From an uncultured Eubacteriales bacterium (GTDB lineage: Bacteria > Acidobacteriota > Aminicenantia > Aminicenantales > Aminicenantaceae): a stretch of DNA of 64,000 bases. The position numbers and the translations under genes are program-made. Positions 70-53,105 of the stretch are shown one piece after another. The notes beneath the pieces were generated by a model. The model ran no database searches. It was given only the letters and a program-made list of their open reading frames with translations, and was not told the DNA's origin. The stretch is from the NCBI GenBank assembly GCA_964505785.1, contig CAZDJZ010000003.1:99186-163185 (forward strand), in the 5' to 3' direction. Position 1 is the first letter of the stretch; each line of letters starts with the position of its first letter.

Positions 70-2319
70 ATGGTTAGAGGAAGCGAACACACACAAATTA
101 CAAAGGATGATATCAGTTTTATCATTGATGAGTTGTCAAAAAACCACAACGCCCCTTCTCTGCAGGAACTGGTAAAGAAAGTCGCCTTTAAAAAGAATGC
201 CAATCAATTGGATCAGGAAGTAAAGTTATATGATCCCGCCTGCAAATACGAAATAGGTGACCTTATCTGCAAAGAATATGATGAGCCTCTTATGGTTAGC
301 AGCAAGGGAAAGGAGCCCTTTAAAGGAAAAATTGTTCTTGAAGTTGTAAACAAGATACCATTCGACAGTTTCAACTGCGAAATGCTGGAAGTGGACTATA
401 CCGGCGGCGGGACGTTCCGGCGCCACATCGATTATATGAAAAAAACGAAAACCCAGGTCATGCTTCCCTCTGCAGAGGGAGAAAAAGAGTGTACTCCGAA
501 AATTCTCAAACGGGAAGATGATCCCCGTTTGCACGATTTATCCATGACAGACAAGGACCTGCGCCAACTGGGAAAAAATCTTGAAGCCGGCCTTTCAGAA
601 TCCGGCAAGTTTTTTTCGTGGAACAACCACTGGCAGCTGATTAAAAAACAAATAAAAATCACCAAAAAAACAATGGATAAGATTGAATCCGATTTTAACA
701 AAAAAAAACAATCCGCATCCACAGAAGAATTGGTGACAGCCCATTTCAATATCAAGCCCGGCAGTGAGAAGATGGATTTGCACTGCATAAGTCTTAATCA
801 TGCTTTAGCTAATTCACGAAAACGCAATTTTTTATTTGTCTCTCCGGAAGGCTGGGGACGCTGGTTTCTCCGCGATATTCTTCAATCATTTATCAAAAAC
901 AACCCTCTCTCTGTTCCTAGGATTGCGGTTCCGGAGCTGCAGGACCAAGCTTCACAAAAAGCTCCGGATAAAAAATTTCCTCTTAAAGTTTATCTTTCAT
1001 GGAGAGAGGTGCTCGGTGGAGGAATCACCGTTCCTCAAGGATTGAAAAGAGAACTCTCAAGTGCCCGTGAATATCGCTTTTTTGATGTTGAAAATGAAAA
1101 AGAATATACCGTATATTATTATCCCAATCTCCATATTTTCCTGGGATTGGATGATTATTATAAGGAACATAAGGTAACTCAGGGAGCCAGTGTTACAATA
1201 GCCAAGGAAGACACAAACCGTTTCCGTTTTTGGCTGAAAAAAGCTAAAAAGAAAATTTCTTTGCCTTTGTTGAAATATAATCCGAAAAACGATTCTTTTG
1301 CGGAAACCGGAAAAGAGATATCTACGTATGCTCACCCTAACAAAATTATTTTTTTAGCCCACGGCACATTAAAAAACATCCTGACCTTGTATAACCAAAG
1401 GGAGGGAAAAGATCTTCGTGAACTTCTTGTGCTGGTTTTCCGTCATTTTGGATTGGAAGGCGAAGCCCTGACTCTTCATTATCAAAGAGCTTTTCATCTC
1501 GTCAATATGCTCACACATACAACCACCGCAGATGTTTATGAAACGTTAATACTGGCACCTGAATTCATTCCGTCGGAAAAGAAAAAGGGTCTCTTTCTGT
1601 ACCATGAAAAATTAAAAAAAGAATCCGAAGTCGAAAAAGAAGCGGAGGATGATATCGAAGAGGGGGAAGAGATTTGGGAAGAAGAGATCGAAGAAGATTA
1701 TTCCGAGGAAGGGCTCCCGGAAATAGGAACAGTGGGTGAAGTCGTATCTCCAGAAGTGGTTCTTGAAGAAAAAAAAGAAATAGAGCTCCCCGAAGAAGAA
1801 AAGCCCGCACTTCCTGAAGAACACCCTGAAGAAGCAGCGGTGCCGGAACCTGAAGCTGAATTTGAGGATGAAGCCGAACTTGAAGCGGTTATGGTGGAGA
1901 AAGAGACCTTAGAAGAGGACCTAGAAGAAGAGGAAGAAGAAGAAAAGGAAAGCATTAGAAAGAAAATTGAGCAGGAACGAAAACCCCGTCATGCTAAAGG
2001 TGGAAAACGTTATATTGAAGAACGAATTGAACAGGAAGAATCTGAACTGGAAGCTTTCTATGCTCTGAAAGCCGAAGAAGAATTTGAGGAAGAAAAGCTG
2101 GAAGATCTCCCCTTAACAAAAAAAGAAGAAAAAGAAAAATCATACGCCAAGACGGAAGAAGAGGAGAAACCCCTGTCCGGATTATTCGGAGAAAAGTTGA
2201 AATCCGCTTTAGGGCAAAAAGAGCAAAAAAGTGAGTCCGGAAAGAAAAAAAACGGTGATAAAAAACCAGCTCAAAAAAAATCAGACGGAAACAAATCTCC
2301 AAAAAAGACAAAAAAGTAA
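70..2319 (+). CDS. hypothetical protein; globular N-terminal ~500 aa, then a Glu-rich acidic tract and a Lys-rich C-terminal tail
   Basis: 749-aa ORF with no competing frame. From about aa 510 to 700 the sequence is dominated by E (EEEIEEDYSEEG, EEDLEEEEEEEKE). The last ~50 aa are K-rich (KKKNGDKKPAQKKSDGNKSPKKTKK). No family recognised by eye. Confidence 0.6.
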   Translation: MVRGSEHTQITKDDISFIIDELSKNHNAPSLQELVKKVAFKKNANQLDQEVKLYDPACKYEIGDLICKEYDEPLMVSSKGKEPFKGKIVLEVVNKIPFDSFNCEMLEVDYTGGGTFRRHIDYMKKTKTQVMLPSAEGEKECTPKILKREDDPRLHDLSMTDKDLRQLGKNLEAGLSESGKFFSWNNHWQLIKKQIKITKKTMDKIESDFNKKKQSASTEELVTAHFNIKPGSEKMDLHCISLNHALANSRKRNFLFVSPEGWGRWFLRDILQSFIKNNPLSVPRIAVPELQDQASQKAPDKKFPLKVYLSWREVLGGGITVPQGLKRELSSAREYRFFDVENEKEYTVYYYPNLHIFLGLDDYYKEHKVTQGASVTIAKEDTNRFRFWLKKAKKKISLPLLKYNPKNDSFAETGKEISTYAHPNKIIFLAHGTLKNILTLYNQREGKDLRELLVLVFRHFGLEGEALTLHYQRAFHLVNMLTHTTTADVYETLILAPEFIPSEKKKGLFLYHEKLKKESEVEKEAEDDIEEGEEIWEEEIEEDYSEEGLPEIGTVGEVVSPEVVLEEKKEIELPEEEKPALPEEHPEEAAVPEPEAEFEDEAELEAVMVEKETLEEDLEEEEEEEKESIRKKIEQERKPRHAKGGKRYIEERIEQEESELEAFYALKAEEEFEEEKLEDLPLTKKEEKEKSYAKTEEEEKPLSGLFGEKLKSALGQKEQKSESGKKKNGDKKPAQKKSDGNKSPKKTKK

Positions 2320-2456
2320 CTATTTTTTGACGTAAATTATACAAAATCCGCAATTTTTGTCAGTTTTATTCTTGCATAAACCTATATTTTCATTTTTTTC
2401 TGTAACATAGAAATGGCATAAATTTTGCATTATTTTTTCATGGGAATAATAACTAA

Positions 2457-2847
2457 CCTGTATTATTCACGGGCCTGGATTGCCGCAGACGGCGACAATA
2501 CGTTCATTCATTGTCGTCCTGAGGAGCATAGCGACGAAGGATCTTAGACGGCGCTTGCACGAGAAGACGATTACTCTTTATTCGGCAAAGAAGTCTAAGA
2601 TCCTCACGGCCTGCCGGCGCAGGCCTCAGGATGACATTGATTCAATCAAGGTCGTCACTTCACTACGACGAGCTGCAAGCCGGAAGATGCGGTGAGATTC
2701 GGCCTGCCCGAAGGGGTGAAAATTTGCGAGTAATATATAAATGTGCAAATGAAAAACTTTCCATTTGAACTTTCAATAAAAATCATGTTAATCGCTGATA
2801 AAAAAGAAATTGCAAAAATATCGCAATTTTTTTATGAATAATTCAGG
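2457..2847. mobile_element. MITE-like non-coding element (copy A of a modular repeat family) with 13-nt terminal inverted repeats
   Basis: The left end is CCTGTATTATTCA (2457-2469). The right end TGAATAATTCAGG (2835-2847) is the reverse complement CCTGAATTATTCA, a 12/13 match. CTAA is present on both flanks (2453-2456 and 2848-2851). The interior carries modules that are repeated elsewhere in the window. Confidence 0.5.
2513..2635. repeat. long imperfect inverted repeat inside element A (two opposed copies of the GTCRTCCTGAGG...GGATCTTAGAC module)
   Basis: 2513-2549 is gtcgtcctgagg...ggatcttagac. The reverse complement of 2593-2635 is gtcatcctgagg...ggatcttagac, so the outer 12 nt (1 mismatch) and inner 11 nt (perfect) can pair. 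The right arm also contains a GC hairpin, GGCCTGC-cggc-GCAGGCC (2608-2625). Confidence 0.7.
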
Positions 2848-2868
2848 CTAAAAGAAAAGGATGATCGC

Positions 2869-3036
2869 ATGAAAAAAATATGTCAACGCCATCATAAAAC
2901 TTTTGGTTTATCCGGCCTCATAGGAGCCTGGGCCGTTATCGGAATGGTATGGGCTGGGATGAACACCCTTCCGCTTATCACTTCATTGATTGCAGGAGGA
3001 TTAATCGGCCTGACTCTCTTTGGGGTAAAAGCATAG
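2869..3036 (+). CDS. possible small (55 aa) two-helix membrane protein
   Basis: This ORF is not in the supplied track because it is under 60 aa: ATG at 2869, TAG at 3034-3036. Translation: MKKICQRHHKTFGLSGLIGAWAVIGMVWAGMNTLPLITSLIAGGLIGLTLFGVKA. It has two hydrophobic Gly-rich stretches and an AAGGA-like RBS (aaaaggatgatcgcATG). No homology evidence. Confidence 0.25.
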   Translation: MKKICQRHHKTFGLSGLIGAWAVIGMVWAGMNTLPLITSLIAGGLIGLTLFGVKA

Positions 3037-6888: not shown

Positions 6889-7662
6889 TTATCCGGTTCG
6901 CCGGTTTTTTTCAAAAATAAGCCGCAATCCCTCTAAAACCAAATGCGGTTCATAGGCATCAATCTCTTCGATATCATCAAAGATCAAAGAGGCAGCTCCT
7001 CCGGTCGCAATAACTTTTGTATCGCTTCCCAGCTCCTGCTTAATCTCATGTATGATGTTTTTTACCAATCCGACGTAACCGAAATAGAGACCGGAATGCA
7101 TGCTGGCATTCGTGTTTTTTCCTATCACGTGCTGGGCTTTTCTTAATTCAATCCAGGGGAGCTTAGCGGTTTTCAGATAAAGCGCTTCTGCCGATATGTG
7201 TATTCCCGGGGCGATGGCTCCTCCCAAATAATCTCCGGAAGAAGAAACGGCATCAAAGGTTGTAGCCGTTCCAAAATCCAGAATGATGCAGGGTGTACCG
7301 TATTTTTCCCGGGCTCCCACTGCGGAAACAATCCTATCCGCACCGACTTCTTGAGGATTATCGTACAGAACTGCAATCCCCGTTTTTAGACCCGGGCCCA
7401 CAACCAAAGCACGTATATTGAAAATTTCACGAGTGATCTTCTGAAACACCGGGGTCAGCGGAGGAACCACACTGGAAATGATCACATCTTCAATGTCAAT
7501 TTTTTTTAAATGAGCCAGGGAAAACAAATTGAGCAGCAAGGCTTTATACTCATCGCAGGTGCTTTTGCGGTCAGCCTTAATCTTCCAGTTCCGCATGAGC
7601 TTTTTTCCCCTGAAAACCCCGATGGCTATACTGGTGTTCCCGATGTCAATCCCCAGCAGCAT
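6889..7662 (-). CDS. coaX: type III pantothenate kinase
   Basis: MLLGIDIGNTSIAIGVF, VGADRIVSAVGA and ILDFGTATTFD are typical ASKHA-fold CoaX/Baf motifs. Length is 257 aa. Confidence 0.9.
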   Translation of the reverse strand: MLLGIDIGNTSIAIGVFRGKKLMRNWKIKADRKSTCDEYKALLLNLFSLAHLKKIDIEDVIISSVVPPLTPVFQKITREIFNIRALVVGPGLKTGIAVLYDNPQEVGADRIVSAVGAREKYGTPCIILDFGTATTFDAVSSSGDYLGGAIAPGIHISAEALYLKTAKLPWIELRKAQHVIGKNTNASMHSGLYFGYVGLVKNIIHEIKQELGSDTKVIATGGAASLIFDDIEEIDAYEPHLVLEGLRLIFEKNRRTG

Positions 7663-25765: not shown

Positions 25766-25813
25766 CCTGGATTATTCATAAAAATATCGCGATTTATTTA
25801 TGAATAATCCAGG
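25766..25813. repeat. 48-bp palindromic mini-element made of two opposed repeat-family termini
   Basis: CCTGGATTATTCATAAA (25766-25782), a 14-nt spacer, then TTTATGAATAATCCAGG (25797-25813). The 17-bp arms are perfect. Confidence 0.85.
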
Positions 25814-28527: not shown

Positions 28528-28532
28528 CCCGT

Positions 28533-28824
28533 CTGGATTATTCATAAACAAATTGCGGTGTTTATCCTTTTTTTCTTTTTTTCGATTATTCACGCCACCC
28601 GTAAAAGTCCAATCCATCTGTTTTGTTCTTCTTAAAATGATTATATTTTAATCGCAATTTTTTTACCCCTCGGGCGGGCCTATCTCACTGCAGATTTTGG
28701 TTTGTTTTTGATTTTTGATATTTGATTTTTAATTTAGAAAAAATAACTTTTCACTTTTCACTGATTTACTCTTTACTAAACGAAGCCGTATGGGATCCTT
28801 CGTCGCTTCGCTCATCAGGATGAC
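28533..28824 (+). repeat. copy B of the modular repeat family
   Basis: Same module order as the reverse complement of copy A. It runs CTGGATTATTCATAAACAAATTGCG (28533-28557), GATTATTCACGCC (28583-28595), TCGCAATTTTTTTACCCCTCGGGCGGGCCTATCTCAC (28652-28688), a T-rich tract, then GGGATCCTTCGTCGCTTCGCTCATCAGGATGAC (28792-28824). Confidence 0.6.
28544..28582 (+). terminator. possible intrinsic terminator of polA, formed by the first repeat module
   Basis: Stem ATAAACA (28544-28550), loop aattgcgg, stem TGTTTAT (28559-28565), followed by ccTTTTTTTcTTTTTTT. The stem is short and AT-rich. Confidence 0.35.
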
Positions 28825-28857
28825 TTTGAACTAAGGAAGGCCGTCAATTTGAGATAA

Positions 28858-37932: not shown

Positions 37933-38194
37933 TTCTGCCCCGCCGGATCAAATATCAGCTTCCTCATATAAAAACCGTTTTCACATGGCAATAGATAAGG
38001 GCCATATCCCGCCGCCGCGCGTCTGTCCCCAGCGAGGACATCCGCTCCGATTCCGGCCTCGCTCTCCCCTCCTGCGGAGAGGAACCGTGCCCGCTCGGCC
38101 TCCATACGGGCCGGCTTGGACATGACCCTTATCCATTGCGGCCGTTCACTTTGAGACTTTCATCGTTCCGGGTTCCGGGTGAATTATATACATG

Positions 38195-38343
38195 CTTCAT
38201 TCATAAAAAATTGCGCTGTTTTTGCAATCTCGGCCCGTAAAAAAGCCTTGCACGTTATTTTCAATCCATGCGGGTGGCAAGACTGTCATGTGCAGTACCT
38301 TAGAAAATGACAAGTCCTTGTCATCCTGATGAGCGAAGCGAAC
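38195..38343 (+). repeat. copy D of the modular repeat family
   Basis: The copy opens with CTTCATTCATAAAAAATTGCGCTGTTTTTGCAATCTCGGCCCG (38195-38237). It then has CCTTAGAAA, the hairpin ATGACAA-gtcc-TTGTCAT (38307-38324) and GTCATCCTGATGAGCGAAGCGAAC (38320-38343). Confidence 0.65.
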
Positions 38344-52892: not shown

Positions 52893-52897
52893 CGCAC

Positions 52898-53105
52898 CCT
52901 GAATCATTCATAAAAAAATTGCGGTGTTATAGCTGTTTATTTTTCATTCCAACATATACCGGCTGCAAATTTCAGAATCTATGAAACGTTTGTTTTTTTC
53001 TTATTTTCATCTTAAGCGCAATTTTTTTCTTTTTGGGCGGGCCGAGATTGATCCAGGTTGTCCCGAGCAAAGCGAACGACGGGTTTATTATTTTCATCGA
53101 AACAG
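52898..53105 (+). repeat. copy C of the modular repeat family
   Basis: CCTGAATCATTCATAAAAAAATTGCGGTG (starts 6 nt after the stop codon), then GCGCAATTTTTTTCTTTTTGGGCGGGCCGAGATTGA (53016-53051), then GTCCCGAGCAAAGCGAACGACGGG (53059-53082). Confidence 0.55.

Follow-up and report, generated by a model that had tools for sequence, protein, structure and literature searches.

The locus and the anatomy of the element

The window, i.e., the whole 64,000-nt stretch of DNA that was analyzed, corresponds to positions 99186-163185 of contig C3 of the source genome (G000), a 3.13-Mb, 50-contig MAG that is ~90% complete. Close to its start, a 749-aa orphan gene and a 55-codon ORF (2869-3036) encoding a small hydrophobic peptide are separated by DNA in which a 391-bp element (2457-2847) with inverted termini is found, the ORF starting 21 nt past the right terminus of the element. 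A clear homologue of this ORF exists in the congeneric MAG G002 (contig C328), and none is seen in the orthologous gap of another congener, G001. The features of the element itself, and those of its relatives elsewhere in the window, are as follows:

2453-2456, no strand: left copy of the target-site duplication, CTAA, read in the sequence (the flanks of the family covary genome-wide)
2457-2489, plus strand: left end, consisting of the 13-nt terminal inverted repeat CCTGTATTATTCA (2457-2469) and the subterminal block CGGGCCTGGATTGCCGCAGA ("module A")
2512-2636, no strand: central 125-nt G+C-rich palindromic module (TGTCGTCCTGAGG...CCTCAGGATGACA), which marks the 391-bp subfamily
2685-2709, plus strand: internal repeat, in inverted orientation, of the left subterminal block (AGATGCGGTGAGATTCGGCCTGCCC), the most conserved part of the interior, pairing with 2470-2489 in the DNA fold
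2716-2828, plus strand: A+T-rich right arm (interior of "module C"), with 100-145 genomic matches
2829-2847, minus strand: right end, a 19-nt terminus TTTTTATGAATAATTCAGG whose outer 13 nt (2835-2847) are the terminal inverted repeat
2848-2851, no strand: right copy of the target-site duplication, CTAA, read in the sequence
25766-25813, no strand: 48-bp mini-element, two perfect termini back to back (CCTGGATTATTCATAAAAAT...ATTTATGAATAATCCAGG), without matching 4-bp flanks
28532-28703, minus strand: one-ended partial relative, right arm and terminus TCTGGATTATTCA (nhmmer E=5.7e-17, profile positions 225-395)
38190-38232, minus strand: short right-end-only fragment, the last ~44 nt (nhmmer E=4e-4, profile positions 353-396)
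52896-53045, minus strand: one-ended partial relative, right arm and terminus CCTGAATCATTCA (nhmmer E=1.5e-15, profile positions 247-397)

The original prediction had described 13-nt inverted termini pairing at 12 of 13 positions and a CTAA directly outside both ends, and the sequence bears this out, as the reverse complement (CCTGAATTATTCA) of TGAATAATTCAGG at 2835-2847 matches CCTGTATTATTCA at 12/13 positions, and CTAA is present at both 2453-2456 and 2848-2851. When folded as a single strand, the element has both of its ends paired (z = -5.85) and a palindrome-rich interior. Its subterminal sequence reads CCTGAATTATTCATAAAAAAATTGCG..., the module A block has ~120-140 matches in the genome when searched with the profile of full-length copies, and the best conserved interior block in the alignment of those copies is AGATGCGGTGAGATTCGG; the AGATGCGGTGAGATTCGGCCTGCCC block is likewise largely invariant in the nine full-length copies, diverged (70-74%) ones included. 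The right arm, judging from the copy alignment and the consensus, resembles the left end with ~125 A+T-rich nt inserted after ATTATTCA, and it carries, adjoining the terminus, an A/T-rich hairpin (AAATTGC..GCAATTT) bordered by runs of A and T, as well as a weak sigma-70-like, outward-facing TTGCAA-17-TATGAA, located immediately inside the right terminus and kept in the family consensus. No promoter or terminator was called inside the element by the scan performed, TTGCAA-17-TATGAA failing the criteria of the scanner; no Rfam match was found for the whole window at gathering thresholds, and a permissive scan of 2300-3000 returned only a chance-level match to the M23 sRNA (E=0.13). The interior had been claimed to lack a credible ORF, and no ORF is indeed conserved between the copies: the 71-, 45- and 43-codon frames are not retained, with the 71-codon TTG frame being present in just 3/9 of the full-length ones.

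Less straightforward was the claim that four sequence modules of the element recur, in the same relative order, in other intergenic gaps of the window. Recurrence as such holds at 28532-28703, 52896-53045, 38190-38232 and 28766-28849, but "four modules, same order" overstates it: what recurs on the minus strand is the right-hand part of the element (~170 nt at 28532-28703, which begins 6 nt past the stop codon of the upstream gene, and ~150 nt at 52896-53045), along with the short right-end fragment and, at 28766-28849, the central palindromic module. The relatives in the window are thus one-ended or decayed rather than full copies.

Copies in the source genome, subfamilies and a second repeat family

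A BLASTN search with 2453-2851 against its own genome gave 555 matches, 11 of which are at least 300 bp long, and an nhmmer profile built from the full-length copies gave 781, amounting to 2.2% of the genome. Alignment of nine full-length copies, together with 60-bp flanks, revealed similarity (70-92% identity) that is sharply delimited, running from CCTG to CAGG, with unrelated sequence on either side. The 13-nt terminus, with up to 2 mismatches allowed, occurs 557 times in the genome vs. 85 times in a shuffled version of it, and 64 pairs of adjacent termini face inward at a distance of 100-600 bp. These pairs cluster in size classes of ~253 bp (26 pairs) and ~391 bp (10 pairs). The search for other full-length copies bounded by the same termini, which had been proposed as a check of the original prediction, came out in its favor, with 26 copies of the 253-bp form and ~9 of the 391-bp one. 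Intergenic positions are occupied by 62/64 of the elements in a genome that is ~87% coding according to a crude ORF mask.

The 253-bp and 391-bp forms have in common their first 33 nt and all of the sequence that begins with ACTTCAC; between these parts lies a core of 28 nt in the former and of 166 nt in the latter. The long core includes the 125-nt palindromic unit (2512-2636) that is missing from the 253-bp subfamily; the 391-bp form is a subfamily whose core has a copy of a separate palindromic repeat instead of the 28-nt core. The profile positions of this central block draw 350-480 nhmmer matches.

The palindromic repeat is a family in its own right (TGTCATCCTGAGG..AAGGATCTTA...TAAGATCCT..CCTCAGGATGACA, ~125 nt), with at least 170 full stand-alone copies and several hundred partial ones; it has sharp ends of its own and no obvious target duplication, and is more abundant than the MITE (examples are window positions 2512-2636 and 28766-28849, C4:7508-7635 and C1:50280-50406). 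Many of the palindromic repeats are bordered by A-rich short periodic tracts (aaaacgcgaaacgcaaaa... and tttgatttttgatatttgattttt), e.g., at C18:26540-26610, at C27:29559-29600 and its paralogues, and at window positions 28700-28740, and these tracts constitute a further repeated module that has received MITE insertions.

Target-site duplication and empty sites

Identical 4-bp flanks were found in 28/64 of the terminus pairs, compared with a mean of 7.9 and a maximum of 16 when the right flanks were permuted 5000 times, and duplication lengths of 2, 3, 5, 6 or 8 bp did not fit. The flanks agree within a copy and vary between copies (CTAA/CTAA, TTAG/TTAG, TTAA/TTAA, TTCG/TTCG, TCAA/TCAA), which shows that the 4-mer has been duplicated and does not belong to the element. 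The length of the duplication is exactly 4 bp, and its preferred target is YTAR. The same pattern of 4-bp duplications is seen for copies from the congeneric MAGs G001 and G002. Duplications at other copies are what the original prediction had asked to be looked for, and they differ in sequence from one copy to the next. About half of the copies are without a perfect duplication, as would be expected from decay.

Paralogous empty sites were searched for by joining the flanks of each copy, with one 4-mer kept, and using the result to search the genome. Three copies (C18:26613-26864, C22:6169-6421 and C1:295694-295945) lie within other repeats that also exist uninterrupted, and removing the element plus one 4-mer restores the uninterrupted repeat at all three sites. 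At the first of these, all 5 aligned paralogues have a single 4-mer at the junction, being CTAA in C27:29559-29676 and C5:133892-133775 and TTAA in the three others. At the C1 site, the element interrupts the right arm of a second member of its own family, and a single TTAG is present in 2/3 of the aligned paralogues; at the C22 site, the paralogues span the junction at 82-84% identity, and the 4-mer has diverged. The element has thus been inserted into pre-existing sequence at these sites.

Orthologous sites in the congeners tell a similar story, even if none of the element-free gaps aligns base for base. In G001, the two genes that flank the window locus are ~50 nt apart, with neither the element nor the 55-codon ORF between them; the site is empty, and a base-for-base alignment is not possible. 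The G002 contig that covers the locus (C328) ends 14 nt upstream of the ATG of the ORF, and a copy on another G002 contig (C164), considered as a possible orthologue of the window copy, was rejected, its flanks being unrelated. Seven further loci were queried in the congeners via flanking coding sequence, five of which were evaluable: at three of them, the congener gaps are 30-100 nt long and the element is absent, one locus has a G002 gap of intermediate length, and at C8:69035-69415, G001 is empty and G002 has a terminus-like sequence at the same position, partly N-masked, so G002 may share an old insertion at this site. There (L148; G002:C103, ~7340-7350), a run of 10 Ns, either masking by the data provider or a scaffold gap, occupies exactly the expected position of the right terminus of the MITE, orthologous to G000 C8:69415. 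Most of the orthologous loci examined in the congeners are, therefore, without the element, which is the outcome the original prediction had anticipated for relatives.

Termini shared with IS1380-family insertion sequences

The right-hand terminus, TTTTTATGAATAATTCAGG, recurs without a difference at the ends of IS1380-family insertion sequences elsewhere. Scanning one genome per species with TTTTTATGAATAATYCAGG returned at least 118 stretches, and among the matches listed there are many Aminicenantes MAGs, Latescibacterota, Bacteroidales, Halalkalibacterium halodurans and others, most of the matches being YTAR-flanked. ORFs located just inside the terminus form, among the matches listed, one cluster of at least 14 ORFs, the longest being 440-470 aa, and the longest member of the cluster matches NF033539 (IS1380 family transposase; 1.5e-113) and PF13701 (1.8e-151). 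Complete 1.6-1.7-kb elements having both termini and exact 4-bp duplications were recovered with TTAG (L032, L054), CTAA (L114) and TTAA (L040). Elements of this size bounded by the terminus occur in Latescibacterota, Bacteroidales, sediment metagenomes and a genome of the same taxonomic family (G007), most of them with YTAR duplications, and the 17-19-nt ends of the MITE are identical or near-identical to the ends of such transposase-bearing elements. The G007 element is 1628 bp long, its ends are ACTGAATAATTCATAAAAA and TTTATGAATAGATCAGG, and its flanks, CTAG and CTAA, are one base different; in metagenome contigs, the same IS lineage has exact TTAA, CTAA or TTAG duplications. A metagenome scan with the transposase of this lineage yielded 16 loci with YTAR duplications, none of which showed similarity to the MITE beyond the termini.

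For IS1380-family elements, as for piggyBac, 4-bp duplications and 5'-CC..GG-3' termini are reported (PMC10045372), the two superfamilies having also been paired elsewhere (PMC5718144); with its 5'-CC...GG-3' termini and 4-bp duplication, the element fits the former description. The recovered insertion sequences and the MITE match in the terminal ~20 nt alone, and derivation of the subterminal sequence from a specific parent IS by internal deletion finds no support in this comparison.

A transposase gene flanked by the same termini, the search for which had been suggested along with the original prediction, thus exists in other genomes and was not found in this assembly: neither a six-frame HMM search (NF033539, PF13701) nor tblastn with eight IS1380 transposases detected an IS1380-family transposase in it, and none was found in the congeners G001 and G002 either. 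In a MAG that is ~90% complete, such an absence is weak evidence either way. As MAG bins often lose multi-copy ISs, it is not strong evidence of extinction.

Two other transposase-bearing candidates were considered as partners and rejected. The assembly has an IS1634-family transposase gene (NF033559, 9.3e-121; C11:90432-92049) that is cut by the end of contig C11 and is the only DDE_Tnp_1 (PF01609) match therein, and it is without these termini. The other is a 1.7-kb IS1380-family element from another genus of the family (L134; G008:C5:345-2062), whose inverted repeats (CCCAAATAATCGGA; CCCAAATAATCGGATAAG) differ from those of the MITE. The G008 genome itself contains ~38 exact CCTG-type termini and many diverged copies of the right arm at ~70% identity.

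Several distinct MITE families of other Aminicenantes (e.g., L022, L075, L027 and L038) have a common layout of terminus, A-run, stem, loop, stem, T-run and ACCCTTCGGGC, with stems that differ between the families yet are complementary (TGCCG/CGGCA, TTGTCGATAC/GTATCGACA, TTGCGAT/ATCGCAA), and this pattern hints at a conserved subterminal hairpin.

Distribution and spread

Of the genomes sampled from the same taxonomic family, 26/29 have the 17-nt terminus, each with as many as 68 exact matches, and it is present in 13/92 of the genomes from the other families of the order, mostly as 1-3 copies (two genomes have 11 and 28). A reversed control pattern had zero matches in all genomes. The consensus of the 253-bp form is 95.3% identical between G000 and G001, and the flanking coding sequences are 67-80% identical between these two and 67-83% identical between G000 and G002; three sampled G001 copies are 98% identical to their own consensus. 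The identity of the 253-bp consensus, set against that of the genes, points to recent or horizontal spread. Together with the mostly unshared insertion sites, it argues for amplification after speciation from very similar sources, by either horizontal spread or a constrained source copy.

Alternative explanations

The element was also weighed as a REP/BIME-type structural repeat that is not mobile, or as conserved intergenic DNA, with the termini and the CTAA being part of the repeated unit. The palindrome-rich interior and the CTAA-like 4-mers beside many copies would suit this, and from a single copy, a duplication and a conserved flank would look the same; flanks that covary within a copy and differ between copies, the single 4-mer at the paralogous empty sites and the empty orthologous sites in the congeners all contradict it. 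As far as sequence data allow, flank covariation and the paralogous empty sites refute such a reading, which is the least probable of those entertained. Only marginally better are the chances of the element being a MITE of the IS5 family instead of IS1380. Insertion sequences of the IS5 group, too, duplicate 4 bp at YTAR targets, and both the length of the duplication and the target seen here resemble those of that group. The transposase-bearing elements found with the terminus, however, form one similarity cluster, the tested member of which belongs to NF033539/PF13701 (IS1380), no IS5-type gene with these ends (CCTGRATTATTCA) was seen among them, and the 5'-CC..GG-3' termini are as described for IS1380 and piggyBac (PMC10045372), which makes an IS5 origin highly improbable.

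More can be said for the family having been co-opted by the host for regulation, in which case the right end would act as an outward promoter or a bidirectional terminator-like hairpin for neighboring genes, in the window for the 55-codon ORF, and conservation would reflect selection instead of recent movement. The promoter-like TTGCAA-17-TATGAA retained in the consensus and the A/T-rich hairpin with its A and T runs next to the terminus would both be in line with such a role, as would the excess of gene starts faced by the right end (72/117 vs. 68/134 for the left end; two-sided p ~0.02, normal approximation) and a 253-bp consensus that is 95% identical between species whose genes are 67-80% identical. 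The promoter-like site is, however, below the criteria of the scanner, the scan called no terminator, and the bias in orientation is slight. Insertion sites are mostly unshared between species, whereas conserved regulatory DNA would be expected to show the opposite. This explanation is, on balance, considered unlikely, if less so than the two above.

Discussion

The stretch at 2457-2847 is, with high confidence, a copy of a non-autonomous, non-coding MITE with IS1380-family ends, and the non-autonomous mobile element reading put forward in the original prediction is upheld by the copies, the covarying duplications and the paralogous as well as orthologous empty sites; the superfamily, IS1380, had not been named there. 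The element was cut-and-pasted, or copied, into a CTAA site between the 749-aa orphan gene and the 55-codon membrane-peptide gene, where the staggered cut of the target gave rise to the CTAA duplication. An IS1380-family DDE transposase, supplied in trans, would bind the 5'-CC...GG-3' termini and the subterminal blocks. Since no IS1380 transposase was found in the assembly or in the congeners, mobilization in trans is inferred. A broader and rather tentative conjecture is that the terminus-marked MITE superfamily is a hallmark of this Aminicenantes family, spreading horizontally between species and moved in trans by IS1380 transposases encoded outside the MITE-rich genomes, with some copies possibly recruited as promoters/terminators.

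Like IS1380-family insertion sequences (e.g., IS1380, IS1247 and ISEcp1; NF033539, PF13701), the MITE has 5'-CC...GG-3' termini and a 4-bp duplication, but those are ~1.6 kb long and carry a transposase gene, whereas the MITE is 391 bp long and does not; its interior is unrelated to the recovered ISs beyond ~20 nt, and its left end retains only 13-14 nt of the IS terminus. The eukaryotic piggyBac and its MITEs, from a superfamily paired with IS1380, also make 4-bp duplications and have CC..GG ends, with TTAA being one of the four YTAR variants used here; in contrast to them, the element described has a bacterial host and a target relaxed to YTAR, in which CTAA and TTAG are commoner than TTAA.

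Classical bacterial MITEs include Correia/CREE of Neisseria, ERIC/IRU, RUP and others, some of which have outward promoters or terminators. With these, the element shares being short, non-coding and intergenic, having terminal inverted repeats, a long-hairpin fold and tens to hundreds of copies, and it differs from them in the parent superfamily, the termini, the 4-bp YTAR duplication, the uncultured Aminicenantes host and its composite nature, as it includes a second, palindromic repeat family. A literature search found no paper on IS1380-derived MITEs or on any Aminicenantes MITEs. As an IS1380-type MITE that makes a 4-bp YTAR duplication, the element represents a new family within a well-known class; it is fairly ordinary mobile DNA that leaves the general picture of MITE function unchanged.

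What it does offer is a well-supported bacterial example of a MITE with IS1380/piggyBac-type ends and a defined YTAR target, and an explanation for some of the intergenic DNA, unusually long and filled with repeats in this lineage, as well as for many contig breaks of related MAGs. Annotators are also warned that the short ORFs and "conserved" motifs between genes are, in this DNA, debris of transposons. Across species, the similarity of the MITE does not match that of the genes, and this discrepancy, in turn, provides a handle on recent horizontal exchange in uncultured sediment bacteria.
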